Shown here: piece after piece, positions 3,850 to 64,000 of the stretch
How the letters are laid out: every line of letters starts with the position of its first letter
Position numbering within the stretch: position 1 is the first letter of the stretch
IMG/VR virus record: IMGVR_UViG_3300027782_000067
From: an uncultured virus (IMG/VR IMGVR_UViG_3300027782_000067)
Lineage: Duplodnaviria > Heunggongvirae > Uroviricota > Caudoviricetes
Direction: 5' to 3' (one strand)
DNA: 64,000 nucleotides
The notes under the pieces: generated by a model
Told to the model about the DNA's origin: nothing
Database searches by the model: none
Seen by the model: the letters and a program-made list of their open reading frames with translations, nothing else
Made by a program: the position numbers and the translations under genes

Positions 3850-4275
3850 ATGAAAAAAGTTTTAAATGACAGTACTGTTACGGTACATTACACCGGAAAA
3901 TTAGAAGATGGAACAATTTTTGACACATCTTTGGCCGAAGGAAGAGAACCATTAACAACAAATTTAGGTCAAGGACAACTCATTAAAGGGTTTGAGTCAG
4001 GTCTTATTGATATGTTAGAAGGTGATAAAAAAACAATTGAGATTGAACCTCTTGATGCTTATGGTGACCATGTTGAAGATATGATCATTGAAGTTACTAA
4101 GGATAAAGTTCCTGAAGGAGTTGAAGTTGGTCAAGTTTTACAAACGGAAGGACCTATGGGACCTAGTTTCGTAAAAGTTATGGAAGTTAAAGATGATGTT
4201 GTGGTAATTGATGCCAATCACCCATTGGCTGGTAAAAAATTAATTTTTGAACTTGAGGTTGTTGGTATTTCTTAA
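3850..4275 (+). CDS. slyD: FKBP-type peptidyl-prolyl cis-trans isomerase (SlyD/FkpB-like, no His-rich tail)
   Basis: VTVHYTGKLEDGTIFDTS, GQLIKGFE, DANHPLAGKKLIFELEV. Confidence 0.92.
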   Translation: MKKVLNDSTVTVHYTGKLEDGTIFDTSLAEGREPLTTNLGQGQLIKGFESGLIDMLEGDKKTIEIEPLDAYGDHVEDMIIEVTKDKVPEGVEVGQVLQTEGPMGPSFVKVMEVKDDVVVIDANHPLAGKKLIFELEVVGIS

Positions 4276-24025: not shown

Positions 24026-24730
24026 TTATAATTCCATAATCCAATTAGGGTTCTCAAGTACTCTTTTTAAAACATCAGTAGTTTTCATAGGTTTAACATC
24101 TGATAGAGTATTATTATTATTTAAGATCTTTTTAATTTTTTGTACCGTTGAGGATGATTTTCCCGTAAGTGACATAATAGATCTAACTGAAACCCCAATC
24201 TGTAATAATTTAACAACATCATCATGTTTTAATAAAAGGTCCATCTCTGTAAATCTGAAACCAACTTTTCTTCCAACCTTACCCCCATTTGTTCTATAAG
24301 AGTTATAACCCCTCTCAAACCTACTTCTTATTTTTAATACTTCTCTATTGGCAAAATCAATTTCACTATAGATTATAGTTAAACAATTTTGGTTTATATT
24401 ATTATTAATGAGGGACTCAAGTTTTAAGTCTGAAAAATAAATGGAAGTTCCAACTTCATATAAAGTAGATATCAATTCTTTTAATTGTTCCTTATCTCTA
24501 CTAAGTCTTGATAATTCAGTTACCAATACTTTATCCACTTTATTATTTAAACAAAAATCAATAAGATCAGAAAGACCCTCCCTTTCAGATACCAACCCAC
24601 TTATACCATAATCCTTAAATGACTTTAATATGTCCCAATCATTATCATCACAAATTTTAACCAACGATAATAGTTGTTCATTTATGTTTTGTTTTTTGGT
24701 TGATGTTCTAGAATACAATACTACCTTCAT
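24026..24730 (-). CDS. small serine recombinase (resolvase/invertase family)
   Basis: YSRTST catalytic motif, GISG..REGL, ELSRLSR, G..VGRK, C-terminal HTH. Confidence 0.9.
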   Translation of the reverse strand: MKVVLYSRTSTKKQNINEQLLSLVKICDDNDWDILKSFKDYGISGLVSEREGLSDLIDFCLNNKVDKVLVTELSRLSRDKEQLKELISTLYEVGTSIYFSDLKLESLINNNINQNCLTIIYSEIDFANREVLKIRSRFERGYNSYRTNGGKVGRKVGFRFTEMDLLLKHDDVVKLLQIGVSVRSIMSLTGKSSSTVQKIKKILNNNNTLSDVKPMKTTDVLKRVLENPNWIMEL

Positions 24731-30330: not shown

Positions 30331-31482
30331 CTATTTTTTTACTTCAAAGAACTTTCTTTTACCCTCATCCTTAATGTTAAGGGCCGCATTGTAATCTCTA
30401 TCTAATTCAGTACCACAACTATTACAAGTCCATGTTCTGTCAGATAATTTTAACTCCTTATTAATTGTACCACAACAATTACAAGTTTTACTTGATGGAT
30501 AAAATTTATCAATTTTAACCGTATGTTTACCGTCAAAATTTGCCTTGTATTCAACCATCCTAACAAAACTACCTAATGAAACATCACTAAGAGATCTGTT
30601 TAATCCTGACTTTTGTTTTACATTTTTACCAGGTTTTTTAATTGTACCTTTAGATGACTTAGTCATTTCTTTTACATTAAGATCCTCCATACAGATCAAG
30701 TCATAATCATTAACCAATTTTATTGACTCATTATGTAAAAAGTTCTCTCTCTTGTTAGCAATTTTTTTATTTAACTTTGAGATTGTTTCTTTTATCTTCT
30801 CTCTATTACTTGATCCCTTCTTTGCTCTACTCAATTTTTGTTGTAGAAGTTTAAGGTATTTTAATTCAGATGAAAGAAATTTTGGATTACCCACATCTAC
30901 TTTGTCTGATGTCACAATAAAACTTTTAATCCCTAAATCAATACCCACAACTTTATTAATTACAACGGGTTGAATATCTTTTTCAATCTCACACATTGCT
31001 GATACATAATAATTACCTTTTTCTCTTGAGATTGTAAATTGTTTTAACTTACCTTCTATTGGTCTATGTATTTTTGCGTATATTGTTTTTTTAACTTTCG
31101 GTATTTTAATTCCATTACCCAAAACTTCAATATGAAATCTAGTTCTAAAACTTTGTTTAATATCTCCCTTACTCTTAAATTTAGGGAATCCACCTTGACC
31201 TTTAAAGAATTTACTATATGCAGATGATAAATTTTCCATTTCATAACACAAGGCATAAATATCATAATTTTTTAACCAAGGTTCCAATATTTTATAATTT
31301 CTTAAGTGATAACTTAAACCAAAAGTACTCAAATTTGATTTACACCCCAGTTGATACAACTGTTGTTCACAATCTAAAGAAACATTGTAGACGTATCTAC
31401 ACGCATTAAAACAACCTTCTATGTATTCTATCTGACTTTTGGTCGGATATATTCGGTATTTATATGCTTTATTTATTTTCAT
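30331..31482 (-). CDS. tnpB: TnpB RNA-guided nuclease (IS200/IS605 OrfB family), CRISPR-adjacent
   Basis: KAYKYRIYPT N-terminus; RuvC GIDLG, MEDLN, DRDYNAA all intact; CxxC..CxxC zinc finger. Confidence 0.95.
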   Translation of the reverse strand: MKINKAYKYRIYPTKSQIEYIEGCFNACRYVYNVSLDCEQQLYQLGCKSNLSTFGLSYHLRNYKILEPWLKNYDIYALCYEMENLSSAYSKFFKGQGGFPKFKSKGDIKQSFRTRFHIEVLGNGIKIPKVKKTIYAKIHRPIEGKLKQFTISREKGNYYVSAMCEIEKDIQPVVINKVVGIDLGIKSFIVTSDKVDVGNPKFLSSELKYLKLLQQKLSRAKKGSSNREKIKETISKLNKKIANKRENFLHNESIKLVNDYDLICMEDLNVKEMTKSSKGTIKKPGKNVKQKSGLNRSLSDVSLGSFVRMVEYKANFDGKHTVKIDKFYPSSKTCNCCGTINKELKLSDRTWTCNSCGTELDRDYNAALNIKDEGKRKFFEVKK

Positions 31483-35078: not shown

Positions 35079-35093
35079 AATGATAAATACTTT

Positions 35094-36906: not shown

Positions 36907-39237
36907 TTAATATCTTTTTTTAATTTCAACAGTATGAACAATATCCAAATAAAAATCTTCAAGGTCTCTTTCACCTGATGTAATTTTATTAATAACCTCA
37001 TCTCTACGATAAGCGGTATTATCTACAATAAACTCAAGCATTTCTTCATCAGTAATATCTTCAGGTTTAACTGGTTCAGGAATACAATCGTGGTTTCTAT
37101 CAAATAAATCAACATCATCAAAATAAAAACCTGTTTCACCAACTATTTGTTCAAACTTTGGGATCATAGTATCTTCATACCATTCCTCTATTATGCTCGT
37201 CACAAAGTTTTTTCTTGCGTTAAAAATTCTCATTATCTTTTCTACTAATGTTTTTGTTATCAGTAATGAACCACTATAAAATTTACCGTCTTCGTAATAG
37301 TATATTGCGGTAATAACTTCTTTACCGTTAACACACCAATCCTCACGAAGATTACCATAGTTACGAGATTTTTTACCTATTTCTCTATTACCACCCTCAA
37401 TATAATCATCAAGAAATAATGTGATAACTTTTCTAAGACTATCTGTGGATTTAAGGTATCTTTGTCTTTGGTCTTCTTCCCTCAATACTTTTATTATGTT
37501 TTCTTTTAAATCTGTTCCCCCACCATCTAACTTATCAGTAAACCCCATAAGTTTATCAAATGCTGGATGTGACATTATTGGTTCTTTTTTCTTATCTTTC
37601 ATCTGATTCCAAGTTGACGGTTTAACTTTCATATGGTTCTTAACAAGATATTTAATTTCATCAACATCCATTCCTTCAAATGATTCAATCCAATCTTTAT
37701 ATCTTTCAACATAGTCCGTTGATTTATCTTCGTGTCCGTACGCCGTTGGTTGATTTGTTTTTGGATTTATTTTATATGTGTCTATCTTACCTAAGTCGTG
37801 AAATAATGCCGCCATTACCATGTTTGGATCATCAGGATAGTGATGGTAAGCTCGTTTAATAACAACAATAATATGTTTAAGAGTATTCCCTTCAGGATGC
37901 CATTCAGGATTTTGTTTTGCCCCCCATTGTTTGAATAAAAGTTCTTTTAATTCCTTTGGTAAGTTCTTAATTAACTCCTGTGGTGTCGCATGAAGTTTTT
38001 CTTCCCTCAATACTCTTCTTATAGATTCTTGCATATTTCTTGGTTCAAATTTTTCTCTATTTTTCCAAATCTGTCCACCTTGATCTAATTGATTTCGTCC
38101 TTTTGTTTTTGAATTAACAATTGGAAGGCCAAAGTAGTCTGATATTTTTTGATATACTATTGTTGCAATTCCTTGTCCTCTATATTTTTCAGGAATAACA
38201 ATATCTCCTACATATATTTCACCATCATTAATTACAATGTTCATTTGTCCAAGATCAACAACACCGTCTTCACTGGTAATATCTTGGTCGTCAACCATAA
38301 TAATAATATTTTGAATTTTACCAAAATGATTATACATATTCCGACCTAAACGAATTTGAACTCTATCTTCTTCAATTCTTGTTGATGGGTCTGAAAGTTT
38401 AAATGGGTTTCTTATGTTATTTTTATGTTCATCGGATTCCCACATTTCTCGTTTATTAATATTCTCCTGTTCTTTAATATTAAAAATAAAATGTATTCTC
38501 CATTTATTAATTATTCTATCGGAAATATTATACATAAAATCATCATAATCAATCCCTCCCCAAATACCATTAAACGTCAGATTTACATCAACTTCAAACA
38601 TAGGAATTCTACTTATACCTTTTTTTATTTCTATATTTAGAATACTTATTTTATCTATAGTATCAACAACATCGCAACCATCAAACGATAACCAATCAGG
38701 GAAAGTATCCGCATCAGGCACTTCACAAATATTTTTAATTTCATCAAGTGTTTGATCAACGATGTTTTGGAATGTCCCAATCATTGTTTTTTTATTTAAC
38801 TTATTATCATTAGTTGATTCCATTAATCCCCAATCCTTACCTGTACCTTCATGTTTTAATGTTATTGCATTTGCAGGTATGTTTTCAAATGTTACTATAT
38901 GTTTTGATCTTGATTCATAGTGTTTATCTTTATACCACTTAACATCAGGTATCATTTCAGTATTAATTTCCCATACATCGTCATCGTATGTGGAATCAAA
39001 AGACGCTCTTTTATTTGTTGAGTTGGTTGCAAAGATTGCTGGTATACATTTTTCACCGTAACCCGCATAAATTTTATAACATTCTCCAGCTCTTACTTTT
39101 AAACCTTCATTTGTTATTTTATCTCTAACCTTTGGATTAGATTTATGTATAACAATTTTGTTTGGTATTATTTCTTTACCCGCAGGACTATATTCATCTT
39201 CCCTTAATATTCTTCTTATGGATTCCTGTAGGTTCAT
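36907..39237 (-). CDS. leader-punctuated multidomain protein: ART/KptA-like, unknown, GNAT, HD and unknown domains
   Basis: HKSN..GLK..IFAT; YRGQGIA; HPEG..H..HDLGK..GHE; internal QESIRRVLREE and KENIIKVLREE. Confidence 0.75.
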   Translation of the reverse strand: MNLQESIRRILREDEYSPAGKEIIPNKIVIHKSNPKVRDKITNEGLKVRAGECYKIYAGYGEKCIPAIFATNSTNKRASFDSTYDDDVWEINTEMIPDVKWYKDKHYESRSKHIVTFENIPANAITLKHEGTGKDWGLMESTNDNKLNKKTMIGTFQNIVDQTLDEIKNICEVPDADTFPDWLSFDGCDVVDTIDKISILNIEIKKGISRIPMFEVDVNLTFNGIWGGIDYDDFMYNISDRIINKWRIHFIFNIKEQENINKREMWESDEHKNNIRNPFKLSDPSTRIEEDRVQIRLGRNMYNHFGKIQNIIIMVDDQDITSEDGVVDLGQMNIVINDGEIYVGDIVIPEKYRGQGIATIVYQKISDYFGLPIVNSKTKGRNQLDQGGQIWKNREKFEPRNMQESIRRVLREEKLHATPQELIKNLPKELKELLFKQWGAKQNPEWHPEGNTLKHIIVVIKRAYHHYPDDPNMVMAALFHDLGKIDTYKINPKTNQPTAYGHEDKSTDYVERYKDWIESFEGMDVDEIKYLVKNHMKVKPSTWNQMKDKKKEPIMSHPAFDKLMGFTDKLDGGGTDLKENIIKVLREEDQRQRYLKSTDSLRKVITLFLDDYIEGGNREIGKKSRNYGNLREDWCVNGKEVITAIYYYEDGKFYSGSLLITKTLVEKIMRIFNARKNFVTSIIEEWYEDTMIPKFEQIVGETGFYFDDVDLFDRNHDCIPEPVKPEDITDEEMLEFIVDNTAYRRDEVINKITSGERDLEDFYLDIVHTVEIKKRY

Positions 39238-40634
39238 ATTTCCTCTTCTATTTTTTTTTGTTTAAGTGGTGGATCCAATAAAAACTTATTATTAATCCAA
39301 TTTCTTAATTCATTTTCAACAAAAAATTCTGGAACTTCGTTATCTTCAGGCATAGTTGACGCTAGTTCAGCAATGTATCTGGCAAATTTAACTTTATATT
39401 TATTATCCATTAAGGTCATTAATCCATCGGATATAAAAAAAATTCTAGATAATGGATCAGATAAATTTAATTCACCTTCAGTTAAATCAAACATTTTCAT
39501 TACCACCTTACCCCACCAAGTCTTATAACTTGTTGTTTCTTCTAAGGTTGGTCTTAAAACTTTATTAACCGCTCTAACAATTGAACCTGTAAAACCGGCA
39601 ATTGCCAATTGTGGAATAAACCAAGGTAATAATCGTATTGTTGCTTTAACACCTCCCTCACCTACGTGTTGAAATAATCTTCTGCTAGTCGCGGAATCAA
39701 CTATAGCCTTTAATTGACCAAATGTTATTTTACCTTGAGAACTACAAAATTTTTCTGAATCACAAATGTTTTTTAAAGCATTTTTGTCGGGATTTGTTTC
39801 ATTTAACCCAATCAATGATTGTGATCTTAATGTTTGTTCAGTTAAAGGATCAAAGTATCTACCTTCTAAGTCAATGTCTCTAACTTCAAGACCTGAGTTA
39901 TCCTCGAACCATTTTTTAAAGACAGGAATCCATTTATCTCCAAATAATAATGTTAACCCATTGTTTACCCATTTTGTGATCACTAAGGCATATAAATAAT
40001 CATACCCATCCCACTCACCAAGATAAGCGTAAGCAAAGAGATCGTTTATCTCAAAGTCATAACTCCCATGTTTATTTACATCATCCCTATAAAAATCATG
40101 TAATTCTGGACCCCAATTATAATCAGGATGATATTCTTCTTTTAAATATTGATATATAAATTCATTAAGATCTTCTCCATCAAAATTTAATATCTTTATT
40201 AATCTTTCTACACTACCAACCGCCTTTGCCGTTTTTTTAATTCCTATAGTACGAATCATTCGGGACAAATTATCTTGTATTGTTTCTTCCCTCAGTATTT
40301 TTATTACTGATTCATTTATACCATATTTTCTTTTTATTAAGTCGTATCTTTCTTCTATTCTTTCATCATAATATTTTCTAAGAACATAAAAAACATCATC
40401 ATACCATTGTAACTCATTTGGGAGGGTATATACCAATATATTGTGTATTCCGTCTATGGTCATTGATAATATGGTATTTCTAAATGTGACCAATGGTACA
40501 ATACTACCACTTTCTTTAAGATTTATTGAACATTTATTTGAAATCGTATCTAAACACTCGGTAAATTCCATTTCTAAATACTCAGGACTTACTCTACGTA
40601 AAATTAGATTTAATGTTTTATCGTTTATGTTCAT
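39234..40634 (-). CDS. multidomain protein with internal leader-like linkers
   Basis: INESVIKILREE, LTEQ and LNET linkers; start moved to MNIND. Confidence 0.65.
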   Translation of the reverse strand: MNINDKTLNLILRRVSPEYLEMEFTECLDTISNKCSINLKESGSIVPLVTFRNTILSMTIDGIHNILVYTLPNELQWYDDVFYVLRKYYDERIEERYDLIKRKYGINESVIKILREETIQDNLSRMIRTIGIKKTAKAVGSVERLIKILNFDGEDLNEFIYQYLKEEYHPDYNWGPELHDFYRDDVNKHGSYDFEINDLFAYAYLGEWDGYDYLYALVITKWVNNGLTLLFGDKWIPVFKKWFEDNSGLEVRDIDLEGRYFDPLTEQTLRSQSLIGLNETNPDKNALKNICDSEKFCSSQGKITFGQLKAIVDSATSRRLFQHVGEGGVKATIRLLPWFIPQLAIAGFTGSIVRAVNKVLRPTLEETTSYKTWWGKVVMKMFDLTEGELNLSDPLSRIFFISDGLMTLMDNKYKVKFARYIAELASTMPEDNEVPEFFVENELRNWINNKFLLDPPLKQKKIEEEI

Positions 40635-40693
40635 ATTAATAAATACGACCATAAGATAAAACTGACTATTTTATAATTAACATAGTTGTTGTA

Positions 40694-44936: not shown

Positions 44937-44956
44937 ATTAATAAATATCCCTTATA

Positions 44957-45353: not shown

Positions 45354-45851
45354 TTACATATTTAATAATTCTGCACTAAACCCATTAAAAAAATTTAATT
45401 TAATTTCTTTAAAATATCTTCTAAAATACTCATCCACAATTTCACTAACTTCATTTTTTATTTGCCAATATTCTTCAAAATCTTGCATTTCTTTACTTAA
45501 AAGATCATAAGTTTTATCTGTTGTCATAATTAAAGTTACCTTACCATATAAAACATCAAAATTAACTTCTAAAAAATCATCTTCATCATAATTATTAATT
45601 TCCCTAACTTTAAAAGTAAAATCATATCCACCAACTTGTATTTTAAATTCTAACTTTCTAACGTCAATTTCTTTACCTATAAACTCTTTTTTTAAAAGAT
45701 CTATTTCTGACATTTTAACTATTTTAGAAACGTTTTTGATTCCTCCAACTTTTCTACAAACCATTAACAATCCTTCATTATTAATCATTTTTAAAAATTG
45801 ATCACCTAAATTTAATTCTTCTTTTAAAATATTTCTTATTAGATTTTTCAT
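45354..45851 (-). CDS. leader-D protein with VGG helical module
   Basis: MKNLIRNILKEE; RKVGGIKNVSKI. Confidence 0.65.
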   Translation of the reverse strand: MKNLIRNILKEELNLGDQFLKMINNEGLLMVCRKVGGIKNVSKIVKMSEIDLLKKEFIGKEIDVRKLEFKIQVGGYDFTFKVREINNYDEDDFLEVNFDVLYGKVTLIMTTDKTYDLLSKEMQDFEEYWQIKNEVSEIVDEYFRRYFKEIKLNFFNGFSAELLNM

Positions 45852-46717
45852 CCCTCTGTAATCTCTATATAATTGAAATGTTTATCTATATTAAAACCAA
45901 AGGATTCAATAACATTATGAACAAACTGTTCAACCAATCCTACAATACCTTCTTTAAATTCATGATAAGAATAAAAATCATCAAATGGATTATTACCTGT
46001 TGAAAAATTTATGTCTTGTCCTGATTCTGGATCATAAAATGTACCTTCTAATACAATAAAATTGGCGTCTAAATCTATATAATTTTTAGTTGGGTTTAAT
46101 AGGTTTTCTTCATCCTCTTCACTAAATTCAACTTTATCAAATTTAATAGTTAGTTTACCATCAAAAAAATCACCCATGACTTGTATCATTTCTCTTTCAG
46201 TAAATGTATTATCCATTAGGTATTTAGTTATTATTTCAGTTCTACTATTACCATCATAACCCATATATTCCATAAAAAATAGAATTATCTCATTTTTTTT
46301 TGAACCCAATCCAAGTTTACTTATATCATATATGTTTGGTATTTTACCTTGTTTTTTTTCTTGGTCCCATTTATTGAAAAAGAATTTTTTAAGTTGGTCT
46401 ATATTATTAGACTCCTGTATTTGATTTTTTCCTGTTTTTCTAAAATTATAATAATATGCCTTTAATAAAGGATCATAAATCTCAATCATATATACTATAT
46501 ACCCATCAACTTCATTTGTTGGTAACTCATCTATATTGATATTGTATTTGTAAAAAATGTAATTTTCTAATGTTGCTTTAACTAATCTCCATTTAAACTC
46601 CTCAAGAGATTCGGATTCATAAAAAATATAACTAGTTCCTTTCCTCATCATTTTTTCAAATTTATGATGATCAATTCTTCTCACAAAAAAAGGCGAAATA
46701 TTATGATTGTTATCCAT
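45848..46717 (-). CDS. two-domain protein; second domain paralogous to 52860..53426
   Basis: IQES linker; LKKFFFNKWDQEKKQGKIP; start moved to MDNNH. Confidence 0.65.
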   Translation of the reverse strand: MDNNHNISPFFVRRIDHHKFEKMMRKGTSYIFYESESLEEFKWRLVKATLENYIFYKYNINIDELPTNEVDGYIVYMIEIYDPLLKAYYYNFRKTGKNQIQESNNIDQLKKFFFNKWDQEKKQGKIPNIYDISKLGLGSKKNEIILFFMEYMGYDGNSRTEIITKYLMDNTFTEREMIQVMGDFFDGKLTIKFDKVEFSEEDEENLLNPTKNYIDLDANFIVLEGTFYDPESGQDINFSTGNNPFDDFYSYHEFKEGIVGLVEQFVHNVIESFGFNIDKHFNYIEITEG

Positions 46718-59026: not shown

Positions 59027-60304
59027 TTAATTTGATAACGGTGCTTTAATTGGTGGGTGTGATTGATAGTTACCTAATTGAATGTCATCTTCTAATAAAC
59101 ATTTACAAAAATTATCATCTTTAAATGATTCAAATACCTTAACGGCATCTATAGATCCTACACCGCACTCACCTGATTCAGTTGGCCAGAACTCAGTGTT
59201 GATGTTTAGGATTGGTAGTGTATATGGTTCTCTTGTTCGGGTTGGTACATTCCATTGATCAATTTCAGAATGTGATAATGTGCTACTGTCTCCACCATTA
59301 TAGATTTGATTAAACATTTCTTGAGTAACCATTTCTCTTCTTTCATCTAAATCTAATTTTTGACCAATTTGTTCTTTCGTTTGTTCAATATGATTCAAAT
59401 ACAAATGTGTATCACCCAAGTTGCCAATCAATTCATCAGGAATCATATTAACTGCCTTAGCAATTATTTCCAATAACAGGCCGTAAGATGCAATGTTGAA
59501 TGGTAGACCTAAGAATGTATCTACTGAACGTTGATTCCACATTAGGGAGATTGCTCTGGTTGGTATTGTATCTTTGTATTTTTCATAGTCCATACCACCA
59601 TCCCCATATTTTTCAATATACAAATCGACTCTTTCATCTAAACTCAACTCTCTTGTATAAACTTGAAATCCATAATGACAAGGTGGAAGCATCATTTGAT
59701 CCAATTCTCCAACATTCCAAGCATTAACCATTAAACGTCTTGAGTCTGGGTTTGTTTTAAGGTCGTTGATTAGGTTCGCAATTTGGTCATTCTTAGGGAC
59801 TTCTTTATAATGGGTTACAGAACCATGATTCCAACCAGAAGGGACTTTTTTATAACCACCCCAATTTCTCCATTGCTTACCATAAATTGGACCTAACTCA
59901 CCCCACTTCTTAGCAAACTCATCATCTGTTTTGATTTCGTTGATGAATTCTTCCTGAGTCATCTTTCTCACTTCAATGTTACTACCTTCATATTGAAATG
60001 TTTTTTCAACCTCAGGGTAAATTTTACAATAGTTCTTATAAGCATCACCATCCCAAATATGACAATTGTTATCAACAAGGAATTTAATGTTTGTATCACC
60101 ACGTAGGAACCATAGTAATTCAGTCACCATAGTTTTCCAAGCCATCTTCTTGGTTGTGAGTAATGGAAACCCATCACTCATTTTATGACGGATCTGTCTA
60201 CCAAAAACACTAATTGTGCCGGTCTTTGTACGATCCATTTTACGGGTACCATTATCTAAAATGTCCTGTAATAAATCTGTGTATTGCCTATCTAAATTAT
60301 TCAT
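59027..60304 (-). CDS. thyA: thymidylate synthase with insertions
   Basis: DRTKTGT, ELLWFLRG, YGKQWR, SRR, LPPCH, QRSVD, PFNIASY, HLYLNH. Confidence 0.95.
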   Translation of the reverse strand: MNNLDRQYTDLLQDILDNGTRKMDRTKTGTISVFGRQIRHKMSDGFPLLTTKKMAWKTMVTELLWFLRGDTNIKFLVDNNCHIWDGDAYKNYCKIYPEVEKTFQYEGSNIEVRKMTQEEFINEIKTDDEFAKKWGELGPIYGKQWRNWGGYKKVPSGWNHGSVTHYKEVPKNDQIANLINDLKTNPDSRRLMVNAWNVGELDQMMLPPCHYGFQVYTRELSLDERVDLYIEKYGDGGMDYEKYKDTIPTRAISLMWNQRSVDTFLGLPFNIASYGLLLEIIAKAVNMIPDELIGNLGDTHLYLNHIEQTKEQIGQKLDLDERREMVTQEMFNQIYNGGDSSTLSHSEIDQWNVPTRTREPYTLPILNINTEFWPTESGECGVGSIDAVKVFESFKDDNFCKCLLEDDIQLGNYQSHPPIKAPLSN

Positions 60305-61448: not shown

Positions 61449-62651
61449 TTATTTATTTTTTAAATCAAATTTTATTTCTTCTGTCAGTACATTTGTTTTT
61501 GACCCCATAACTTCTTCCGACATTTCATATTTAACATCGTCAGAATAATCTTTTAGTAATTCTTCAGATGTTAATGTACCGTACTTACCTTCAAAACCAT
61601 TAACATCAATCTTTACATTAATATTTTTATACATTCTTTCCCAATATTGTGTTCCATTCAATGAGATTGAAATTTCATTAATAATCTTATATGGGTCCGC
61701 ATTTGATCCTGGTCTTCTATCTTCCAAATAACCTTTCCAATTATCTGCGGTTGTTTTTGGGACTCTGATTGATGATCCTCTATCCGATACACCCCAACTA
61801 AATTTATCAATTGATTGTGTCTCAAAATTTCCGGTTAATCTTAAATTATTATCGGAACCATATGATTCAATATGTTCTTTATGTCTATTTTCAAATGATG
61901 TGAATATTGATTTGAAGTATTCTTCCTTGCCATCATTTCTCATTTTGTCGTTTGAAAAGTTAGTATGTAAACCAGATCCGTTCCATTCTCCGTATTTAAG
62001 TGGTTTTGGATGTAGATTAACCCCATAATTATATTTTTCGGAAATTTTATATAAAAAGTACCTGGTCATCCACAAATCATCACCCGCCTTTAATTTACCT
62101 TTTGAAAATACTTGGTATTCCCATTGACCTAATGCAACCTCAGCGTTGATCCCTGTAATATCAATTCCGTATTTTAAACACATATCCATATGTTCTTCAA
62201 CAAAATCTCTTCCTGCAACATATTCACCTACACCACAATAATATTTACCTTGTGGTTCCAAGTTGTTTTCATCGTGACCTAAAATACATTTATTTTTTAT
62301 ATCCTGTATAAAATATTCTTGTTCAAACCCAAACCATAAATCTTCTTGTTCTTCAATTAGTTTTGATCTTGTATTAGTTTTGTGTGGAGTACCATCAGAA
62401 TTCATTACTTCACACAACACGTAAATTGTGTTTGTATGATTGTAAAAATAATGTCTAACAGGTATTAAAATACAATCAGAACTACCTGTCTGAGCTTGTT
62501 TTGTTGATGACCCATCAAAGTTCCATTTTGGAAAATTACCTAAAACCAAACAATTTCTAATTTCTTCGTATTCAACAATTTTAATTTTACTTCTCAAATT
62601 TGGTTCTGGTGTATACCCATCTAACCAAACATATTCTAATTTACACTTCAT
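61449..62651 (-). CDS. glnII: glutamine synthetase type II
   Basis: LEYVWLDG, WNFDGSST, FGFEQEY, PQGKYYCGVG, GINAEV..GQWEYQ, WNGSGLHTNFS, YLEDRRP. Confidence 0.93.
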   Translation of the reverse strand: MKCKLEYVWLDGYTPEPNLRSKIKIVEYEEIRNCLVLGNFPKWNFDGSSTKQAQTGSSDCILIPVRHYFYNHTNTIYVLCEVMNSDGTPHKTNTRSKLIEEQEDLWFGFEQEYFIQDIKNKCILGHDENNLEPQGKYYCGVGEYVAGRDFVEEHMDMCLKYGIDITGINAEVALGQWEYQVFSKGKLKAGDDLWMTRYFLYKISEKYNYGVNLHPKPLKYGEWNGSGLHTNFSNDKMRNDGKEEYFKSIFTSFENRHKEHIESYGSDNNLRLTGNFETQSIDKFSWGVSDRGSSIRVPKTTADNWKGYLEDRRPGSNADPYKIINEISISLNGTQYWERMYKNINVKIDVNGFEGKYGTLTSEELLKDYSDDVKYEMSEEVMGSKTNVLTEEIKFDLKNK

Positions 62652-62866: not shown

Positions 62867-64000
62867 TTATTTTAAAAATATTTTTTTAGATTGTTTTTGT
62901 CTGTGGAATTTAATGGCAAATCTGTGTACTTCTTCTTGTATTTTACCAAAAAGTGTAAAGTTCTTATAATCCTTTATGTTAAATTCCGTACCGTCTATCT
63001 TATGAATAACTGAAGACTTATGGTTAGAGTCCTTAGATATTGAAATTAAATCTATCTTATCAGTTAAATTAAGTTTTTCAAACACTCTTTTTGCAACACC
63101 TAATTGTCCTTTACCCCCATCAATTAAAATAAGATCAGGTAGTTTTTGTTTTTCATCAATAAGTCTTTTTAGTCTTCTTTGTAAGATCTCATCAAAAGAT
63201 GCGTAGTCATCAATACCAACAAAACTTTTAATATTGTATTTACGATACTCAGATTTTAATGGAACACCATCATCAAACCTAACCGAAGCCGCAACATTAG
63301 AATCTCCTTGGTTATGTGAATTATCAAAAGCCTCAATAACCTGCGGTATATTTTTCAGATTTAAAATATCCTTTATTTCAAAGATATTTTTTTTGCGTTT
63401 CTGAATTCTTATTACCTCTAACTTATTATCAATTGTTTCCAATACTGTAAGTTTCGATAATATAGTCTGAGCTTTTTCATATTCCGTATTATTTGAATAA
63501 TGTTTCATTAATTTTTTTATCTTTGACTTTAATCCATCCAAATCAAGAGAAAGAACTTTTTTAACGTCACGAACTATTTCATTATAGTAAAACTTTTTAA
63601 TACCATTTACGCAAGGGGCATTACATCTACCAAGATGAAATTCTAAACAATTTTTAAATTTTTCTTTTAGAATATTTTCTTCTGTAAGATCGTAAGAACA
63701 ACTACGAAGTTCAAAGATATCATGAATAAGATCATATACTTCACGACACAACATTCCTGAAGTAAAATCAAGACTTACTCTATCGTCTTGTTTATCTCTT
63801 ACTATTTCAAGTTTAGGAAATTCTTCGTCCGTAAAACATAAGGACCATTTTCTAGTCTTATCATCTTTACCCTTGATATTAAACTTTGGTTTGTATAGTT
63901 TAATTAATTCTTCTTCAAGGATTATTGCCTCTTGTTCTGATGAGGTAATTTTAAACTCAACATCGTGAATGTTCTCAACGAGGGTTTTTGTTTTACCAGT
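62867..64000 (-). CDS. uvrC: UvrC-like excinuclease, 5' end beyond the window, lacking the C-terminal HhH domain
   Basis: frame open to 64000 (EAIILEEELIKLYKPKFN); CLEFHLGRCNAPC; EAFDNSH, DDYAS, PDLILIDGGKGQ, EEVHRFAI. Confidence 0.9.
   Translation of the reverse strand, partial: TGKTKTLVENIHDVEFKITSSEQEAIILEEELIKLYKPKFNIKGKDDKTRKWSLCFTDEEFPKLEIVRDKQDDRVSLDFTSGMLCREVYDLIHDIFELRSCSYDLTEENILKEKFKNCLEFHLGRCNAPCVNGIKKFYYNEIVRDVKKVLSLDLDGLKSKIKKLMKHYSNNTEYEKAQTILSKLTVLETIDNKLEVIRIQKRKKNIFEIKDILNLKNIPQVIEAFDNSHNQGDSNVAASVRFDDGVPLKSEYRKYNIKSFVGIDDYASFDEILQRRLKRLIDEKQKLPDLILIDGGKGQLGVAKRVFEKLNLTDKIDLISISKDSNHKSSVIHKIDGTEFNIKDYKNFTLFGKIQEEVHRFAIKFHRQKQSKKIFLK

Follow-up and report, generated by a model that had tools for sequence, protein, structure and literature searches.

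The stretch analysed here (the window) comprises 64,000 nucleotides of the uncultured tailed virus IMGVR_UViG_3300027782_000067, and our subject is one of its minus-strand open reading frames (ORFs), 776 amino acids (aa) long, which an original prediction had read as a polyprotein of host-modifying enzymes punctuated by copies of its own N-terminal leader and cut apart by the head protease. We find that this ORF is a mosaic of five modules, A to E, jointed at copies or remnants of a 14-residue tag, the leader, and that the mosaic originated by recombination; in both points our confidence is very high. The DNA coding for the leader is a recombination handle at which whole modules are gained and lost between close relatives. 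As to the polyprotein claim, the module borders, the stand-alone forms of modules, the T4-type protease of relatives and the (L/I)-x-E sites all fit, while packaging and cleavage are what we infer from them. In our estimate packaging plus cleavage falls slightly short of an even chance, and so does the whole statement that the mosaic chain is loaded into the capsid and cut at its leaders by the head protease.

Three full leader copies are present in the ORF (Table 1). The first is its N-terminus, and the internal recurrences seen earlier before and after the HD domain are borne out, with the cores MQESIRRVLREE at aa 402-413 and LKENIIKVLREE at aa 577-588. The two remaining junctions hold shorter motifs, LMES (aa 138-141) and MWES (aa 265-268). 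In alignment A1, LMES stands opposite the first half of the full leaders of relatives (PNLYES.., IVRES..), and the B/C junction sequence EMWESDEHKNNIRN occupies the same 14 columns as KIQESIRRILREET, which precedes module C in the relatives P0049-52. Because these columns are common with full leaders, we regard LMES and MWES as decayed leader copies. A strict 8-residue pattern of the leader core has seven matches in the six frames of the window, all of them in minus-strand ORFs and three in the 776-aa ORF; the window has a G+C content of 27-35% and carries nearly all its genes on one strand. Internal translation starts at the leader copies are unlikely: Met402 is not conserved (it is Ile in the relative P0001), and leader 3 has no Met.

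The module borders were established by homology and by structure prediction. A search for proteins of near-equal length gave 370 relatives among 7,715 candidates, of which the best 120 were listed, and a search for shorter proteins gave 797 relatives among 3,158 candidates; 240 listed relatives were then mapped onto the ORF by BLAST. Among the 120 best near-length relatives only P0001 covers the full length of the ORF, with the five modules in the same order (775 aa, 90% identity, from another assembly). For the 240 relatives as a whole, block limits lie at about aa 1/16, 133-141, 268-278, 401-413 and 574-591. Stand-alone proteins stop at the same places: P0299 and P0327, which consist of the leader and module A, are 134 aa long and end in ...GTGK, corresponding to aa 134, while stand-alone HD proteins of 186 aa stop at aa 577-579, and module E exists as a separate gene of about 200 aa behind another tag, MKIIITEEQ or MKIIINEEQ (IMG/VR loci L006 and L009). 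In the AlphaFold models all five motif sites fall in segments where the predicted local distance difference test (pLDDT) is below 50 (aa 1-22, 134-147, 261-285, 378-410 and 573-596), although model 1 is poor (mean pLDDT 57, 162 of 420 residues below 50) and hence weak evidence at the first three of them. Blocks of homology, stand-alone relatives and poorly predicted linkers together confirm that all five motif sites are module borders. The checks proposed at the outset, structure prediction with profile searches for each segment and a search for stand-alone homologues (found for A, D and E), thus upheld the placing of LMES and MWES near domain borders.

Comparison with close relatives locates the breakpoints at the nucleotide level. 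In the syntenic IMG/VR relative L001, which has the same upstream genes, the corresponding ORF is composed of a cyanophycin-synthase-N-like module, the leader, and modules A, B and E. It is devoid of 897 nt encoding C and D, with flanks 94.9% and 97.6% identical to the window, and the joint leads from the MWES remnant to leader 3 through AACATAA, common to both parents. A metagenome contig of run X9 carries an L001-type joint (37493->38412, 7 shared letters); other contigs are joined at leader 2 (38022 and 38031), and further ones at leader 1. Five of the 15 listed metagenome joints have an end within a leader, the contigs having been aligned at 85% likeness, so that they come mostly from related phages, and the short side of one joint being 24 letters. 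Moreover, contig ends heap up at both edges of leader 1 (39197 and 39237-39240) in four of four freshwater metagenome runs, where depth is also raised. These contigs come from studies other than that of the window; DNA of the phage is present in 18 studies, and two RNA runs contained only 5-6% of the sampled words. Not every deletion is of this kind, as the one by which P0002 lacks aa 293-384 is not at a leader. It is because breakpoints of relatives fall inside leader-coding DNA that we call this DNA a recombination handle. The same repeat, about 41 nt long and a place where many contigs break, is what would make one suspect a chimeric ORF assembled from reads mis-joined at the leader. The probability of such an artefact is very low: P0001 is alike over 100% of the length and represents a cluster of 13 sequences, and contigs of run X5 identical to the window cross both leader 2 (37891-38604) and leader 3 (37417-37920).

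The leader behaves as a portable tag, which in this group of uncultured freshwater T4-like phages also stands at the head of many separate genes. Its core is found in 95 of the 120 best near-length relatives, at the N-terminus in 76, internally in 65 and in at least two copies in 57. It stands directly behind LDGGG in 65 of the 78 proteins that continue past the HD module, and among the listed relatives module D follows one of several different tags or no tag at all. Identity over 928 pairs is 0.81 for the HD module, 0.53 for the leader and 0.07 for the next 22 residues; nevertheless, in the 65 leaders behind HD, Ile7 is kept in all and Glu13 in 64. Elsewhere the modules have as partners DUF2237, cyanophycin-synthase-N-like and DUF5661 parts and many parts of unknown type. 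The phenomenon extends over the window, where dozens of small ORFs begin with tags of the types MKIIITESQ, MKKTIRLTESDL.., MNLQESIRRILREE or ..ENIxRIKxMMGL. Of 106 window ORFs, 53 have an [LI]-x-E motif beginning in their first 10 residues (16 expected) and 17 have [LI]-x-E-S beginning there (1.3 expected), counts that are not independent events, the tags being homologous copies, and that speak the less for cleavage on that account. Eight recognisable enzyme or mobile-element genes of the window are untagged: those for thymidylate synthase, a glutamine-synthetase-like protein, a UvrC-like protein, TnpB, a resolvase, a glycosyltransferase, a phosphoesterase and a nitroreductase.

The tags are conserved in codons as well. 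The Arg of LREE is encoded by AGG in 18 of 26 copies, as compared with 11% of Arg codons in window ORFs. Within the window, where AGG is rare, all five copies of the L-R-E-E tag type have it (for instance at 39199-39207, 38002-38010 and 37477-37485), in the fixed string AGGGAAGA. Long arrays of small minus-strand ORFs with tags of the MKIIITESQ or the MKKTIRLTESDLxRIVKRVIxE type lie within positions 1-23932. Between several of these ORFs stands a G+C-rich hairpin with a T-run, after which comes TATTTAT, for instance upstream of 14538, 16177 and 21745. The minus-strand ORF at 45848-46717 starts with MDNNHNISPFFVRRIDHHKFEKMM, which is the N-terminal module before A and B in relatives of 387-402 aa (P0121 and others).

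The model for a packaging tag is phage T4, whose head protease gp21 removes a capsid-targeting sequence (CTS) from internal proteins IPI-III and from Alt (PMC9026906, PMC3012670, PMC9958956). According to these papers, the gp21 motif is L/I-x-E and the CTS has 10 residues (PMC9026906), the CTS is all that the internal proteins of T-even phages have in common (PMC3012670), and the protease removes 65 residues of the capsid protein gp23 and the first 10 of gp24 (PMC9958956). As in T4, the tag found here is short, N-terminal, carried by unrelated proteins and ended by L/I-x-E. The N-terminus of T4 gp24 is MAKINELLRE followed by S, so that its propeptide, too, ends in L-R-E before a Ser. In leader 1, MNLQE↓S and ILRE↓D, both within aa 1-14, agree with the (L/I)-x-E propeptide pattern given in PMC9026906 (the arrow marks the proposed cut).

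Relatives of the phage have T4-type head genes. Three of five related records contain a gp21-type protease (Peptidase_S77) and Gp23 above cut-off, and two of them, G002 and G004, also carry leader copies. The head genes of G002 follow the T4 order (portal, two small ORFs, protease, scaffold, capsid protein), and opposite Glu65 of T4 gp23, the residue before the cut, the capsid protein of the relative reads ...LINE↓ATSEG. gp32 was found in one of the five records only (G001), a search with the gp45 profile PF09116 matched nowhere and is uninformative, and the closest cultured capsid proteins, about 40% identical, are those of Flavobacterium immuto phages. The 76-kb sister record G005 has a ThyA 82% identical to that of the window, together with gp46/47-like, primase, exonuclease and RNA-ligase genes; no IMG/VR contig contained an exact 35-nt stretch taken from module C of the window. 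Its RNA ligase lies beside phosphoesterase and kinase-like ATPase genes (L027:12464-13588 and L027:16856-17892), a set resembling that for RNA repair in T4-like phages.

A promoter-like motif accompanies many of the tagged genes. TATTTAT occurs 57 times on the sense strand of the window and 25 times on the antisense strand, and 34 of the 57 sense copies are concentrated in the 9% of the window that is 7-60 nt upstream of an ORF start. In G002 (locus L022) the motif stands before the genes for the protease (an ORF of 245 aa), the scaffold and the capsid protein, and it could be the late promoter of the clade. Many start codons have the motif 4-7 nt or 20-40 nt in front of them, as with the copies at 35083-35089 and 44941-44947, and where it is 4-7 nt before the ATG of tagged genes, as it often is, the mRNAs may be nearly leaderless. 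Beyond 56612, where the genes for thymidylate synthase, the glutamine-synthetase-like protein and the UvrC-like protein are situated, the window has no sense-strand TATTTAT. The T4 late promoter TATAAATA was rejected as the enriched signal, only 11 of its 33 matches being in sense orientation; the enriched motif is TATTTAT.

In the mechanism that we propose, recombination within leader DNA, the step that is directly visible in relatives, builds and rebuilds the module chains. The leader would work like the T4 CTS: the copy at the N-terminus would bring the chain into the prohead core late in infection, and cuts by a gp21-type head protease would follow after the Glu of (L/I)-x-E at each joint. 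These would fall at LQE↓S and LRE↓E in full copies and, in the remnants, at LME↓S and possibly MWE↓S, the predicted sites being Glu5/13, 140, 267, 404/412 and 579/587; the freed enzymes would enter the next cell together with the DNA. Cutting is favoured because near-identical phages differ in which modules are fused, a difference most easily tolerated if the end products are the same. Somewhat less probable is the wider proposal that one peptide does three jobs, as prohead address, cut mark and DNA homology handle, and thereby gives giant freshwater T4-like phages a combinatorial library of enzymes delivered together with DNA.

Several observations weigh against packaging and cleavage. Neither the window nor G005, both of them fragments, contains a head gene, and for this reason the T4-likeness of the phage itself rests on distant relatives and on the genes of G005. 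The residue after the LRE cut would be Glu or Asp, as against Ala or Ser at the two T4 sites compared, and the B/C remnant reads M-W-E, not L/I-x-E. As [LI]-x-E occurs 17 times in the 776-aa ORF, folded parts included, the motif taken alone says little. N-termini of this sort on half of the window ORFs would amount to a very large cargo list, and even a complete CCA-adding enzyme, P0041, bears a tag. Finally, given the sameness of codons and the pile-ups in the DNA, gene conversion could keep the internal copies alike without a role for the protein, and with near-leaderless mRNAs the first codons might be conserved for the sake of translation.

These last points lead to a chain that is never cut. 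The leader would be a DNA and expression cassette for gene swaps, made of promoter-like motif, ATG and first codons; its internal copies would be fusion scars, at most flexible helical linkers, and the whole protein would act in the cytoplasm as beads on a string. We consider this the main rival, though rather unlikely. It accounts for the preference for AGG in the leader, for the breakpoints inside a repeat where many different contigs end, and for the gap of 4-7 nt between TATTTAT and ATG, with its suggestion of nearly leaderless mRNAs; LMES and MWES are instances of internal copies that were free to decay, and P0247, P0325 and P0194 end in a leader followed by a stop, as a scar might. What speaks against it is the near-invariance of Ile7 and Glu13 behind HD modules whose identity has fallen to about 0.8 and before next modules that are unrelated, as well as the conservation of Glu-Ser at the decayed A/B joint in the relatives of alignment A1. 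Furthermore, (I/L)-x-E-S is common to three different-looking tag families, and the promoter-like motif is common to head genes. An improbable further alternative has the leader as a docking or sorting helix for a target other than the capsid (a hub protein, a chaperone or a membrane site), or as the substrate of another protease, so that the tagged proteins are collected or processed within the infected cell instead of being delivered. The leader is indeed predicted to be helical, with low confidence (H3-12, H402-415 and H176-189 of the models), its hydrophobic residues L3, I7, I/V10 and L11 are at helix spacing, and its presence on unrelated folds means that it is not part of those folds; yet the T4 precedent of a short N-terminal tag, L/I-x-E and a gp21-type protease in relatives needs fewer assumptions.

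Table 1. Features of the 776-aa ORF and of the gene upstream, with window positions and residue numbers.
Feature	Position	Strand	Residues	Basis or remark
Promoter-like TATTTAT, 4 nt before the ATG at 40634	40639..40645	(-)
Upstream ORF of the two-gene unit, 472 aa, with internal leader GINESVIKILREET	39234..40652	(-)
Five-module ORF, 776 aa	36907..39237	(-)		ORF list
Leader copy 1, MNLQESIRRILRED, with L-Q-E and L-R-E sites	39196..39237	(-)	aa 1-14
Module A, putative small ADP-ribosyltransferase-like fold	38836..39195	(-)	aa 15-134
A/B junction with LMES, leader remnant	38797..38835	(-)	aa 135-147	alignment A1; pLDDT <50 at aa 134-147
Module B, alpha/beta domain	38458..38796	(-)	aa 148-260	pLDDT 68-87
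B/C junction, degenerate 14-residue leader	38407..38448	(-)	aa 264-277	alignment A1
Module C, possibly GNAT-like, YRGQGIA at aa 352-358	38041..38406	(-)	aa 278-399
Leader copy 2, RNMQESIRRVLREE	37999..38040	(-)	aa 400-413
Module D, HD phosphohydrolase domain, FHDLGK at aa 479-484	37516..37998	(-)	aa 414-574
Leader copy 3, TDLKENIIKVLREE	37474..37515	(-)	aa 575-588	pLDDT <50 at aa 573-596
Module E, predicted alpha/beta domain	36910..37473	(-)	aa 589-776	pLDDT mostly 70-89
BLAST block A			aa 1/16 to about 134-170
BLAST block B			aa 138-273
BLAST block C			aa 278-413
BLAST block D			aa 401-588
BLAST block E			aa 580-776

The ATG of the 776-aa ORF overlaps the stop codon of the upstream ORF (ATGA), whose true start is probably the ATG at 40634. 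This upstream ORF is a mosaic too, and in the sister phage (L001:8412-9527) its C-terminal part is replaced by a module of the FFQRRIDLD type.

Three domains had been named in the original prediction, an ART/KptA-like fold (ART, ADP-ribosyltransferase), a GNAT acetyltransferase and an HD phosphohydrolase, and this list is largely right, although it missed modules B and E. The assignment of module D as an HD domain, similar to that of CCA-adding enzymes, is solid. It matches Pfam HD (PF01966) with 28.9 bits for a cut-off of 22, its fold aligns with PhnZ (Z 13.0, root-mean-square deviation 2.8, 136 residues aligned) and with the tRNA-processing enzyme 3wfo (Z 12.0), and it matches phrog_2244, tRNA nucleotidyltransferase. 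Its identity to the HD part of P0041, a protein with PolyA_pol and its RNA-binding domain, is 71%. In the phage collection the sole record resembling the ORF is the tRNA nucleotidyltransferase of Tunturiibacter phage Tunturi_5, through its HD part only (31% identity). Module D is thus homologous to the C-terminal HD part of CCA-adding enzymes such as P0041 and that of Tunturi_5; unlike these enzymes, the 776-aa ORF lacks the PolyA_pol nucleotidyltransferase head (PF01743) in a Pfam search.

For module A the ART claim stands weakly, and the KptA part of it does not. The model aligns over aa 18-132 to the NAD-binding C-lobe of Tpt1/KptA (NAD, nicotinamide adenine dinucleotide; chain residues 84-182) in 11 entries, with Z 5.4-6.4 (VIA-align) and 11-19% identity, its best Foldseek match is 9ldi (E 4.4e-3), and its ESM features lie near the Arr and PARP clusters (0.93). 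In contrast, there is no Pfam match to this module, and the N-terminal RNA-binding lobe of Tpt1/KptA is absent, only 17 residues, those of the leader, preceding the aligned part. His31, Tyr54/57/60 and Asp86, read from the sequence, are what we take to be candidates for the ART triad. Because the model is weak (pLDDT mostly <66), we use the label ART-like, not KptA. Module C is, weakly, GNAT-like: it has fold matches with Z 5.4-6.0 over 77-88 residues, those to VipF, AAC and RibT at Z 5.7-6.0, whereas its score for Pfam Acetyltransf_1 (PF00583) is 19.6 bits (E 0.0012) for a cut-off of 20.7, and three more GNAT families also stay below their own cut-offs. RGQGIA (aa 353-358) presumably is the usual acetyl-CoA loop motif of GNAT enzymes. 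The fold matches of module B, which P0006 holds twice, are generic only (SirA, Z 7.1; RbfA, Z about 6-6.9). For module E the ESM atlas has nothing above 0.79. The profile of alignment A1 found no PDB sequence below E 0.14, and Foldseek with both models no match at E <= 0.001, both fold searches with model 2 being taken up by the HD domain.

A joint role in RNA-end repair or anti-defence, suggested earlier for the fused domains, found no direct support, the same modules being present in many other combinations. A dedicated multi-enzyme chain, in which the ART-like, GNAT-like and HD modules would act together on RNA ends or tRNA, is accordingly very improbable. An HD module of the CCA-adding type, a module A resembling the NAD lobe of Tpt1/KptA and the RNA ligase and kinase- or phosphoesterase-like genes of G005 would all suit it. 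Against this, near-identical phages differ in their set of modules (L001 has another first module and no C or D, and P0002 has lost part of the chain), the order of the five modules holds among the closest relatives only, A, D and E each also stand alone, and the partners found elsewhere include DUF2237, cyanophycin-synthase-N-like and DUF5661 parts besides many unknown ones. With module sets that vary in this way, the five are unlikely to have a fixed function in common.

Separate cargo enzymes cut from one chain would have partial counterparts in known systems. T4 packages the ADP-ribosyltransferase Alt, and module A is ART-like; in an hhalign comparison with alignment A1 there was no sequence similarity to Alt (probability 0.3%). 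Exchange at the leader is a known feature of the ip genes of T-even phages, as recombination studies of related phages have described. In the T-even ip genes, too, a conserved leader precedes unrelated bodies, according to PMC3012670. The case described here differs in its larger scale, in-frame chaining of modules and breakpoints resolved to the nucleotide. Unlike the T4 CTS, the tag recurs inside long ORFs at each joint, so that one chain would give up to five products, and tags of several families sit on dozens of genes (53 of the 106 ORFs of the window), as opposed to a handful in T4. The giant phages phiKZ, 201phi2-1 and SPN3US likewise have many head-internal or ejection proteins cut after Glu by a gp21-related protease, with multi-site propeptides (PMC9026906, PMC7411985, PMC10052503), but these use S/A-x-E, and the accessible parts of the papers report neither a common portable tag nor enzyme chains for them. 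Text searches, with supplements outside their reach, returned no paper with the tag strings or with chained cargo bearing internal CTS copies, and beyond the T4 and SPN3US papers none that joined the terms CTS, polyprotein and giant phage.

Were the joints cut, tailed phages would be filling their capsids with a variety of enzymes by a polyprotein strategy, of which most other known cases are RNA viruses. The tag would then be a portable signal for packaging and release, a natural plug-and-play system of protein delivery, and it would allow large uncultured phages a fast trial of effector combinations, in which fusing or splitting at the tag leaves the final products unchanged. Even with uncut joints, the exchange of modules at a coding tag, documented at nucleotide level, is a clear natural case in which a dedicated homology cassette shuffles domains. 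Modules A and D are, in either case, candidates for host-takeover or RNA-directed functions.

Other genes of the window lie apart from this system. A TnpB gene (OrfB_IS605 and Cas12f-like TNB; 30331-31482, minus strand) and a serine resolvase gene (24026-24730, minus strand) are found about 5.6 kb from each other inside the phage region. The thymidylate synthase gene (59027-60304, minus strand) encodes 425 aa, and its Pfam match spans aa 7-316 for 224 profile positions, which suggests a large insertion. The glutamine-synthetase-like gene (61449-62651) and the gene with a UvrC RNase H endonuclease domain (62867-63754), both on the minus strand, have neither a tag nor a TATTTAT nearby. Among the few plus-strand genes is one for an FKBP-type peptidyl-prolyl isomerase (3850-4275).

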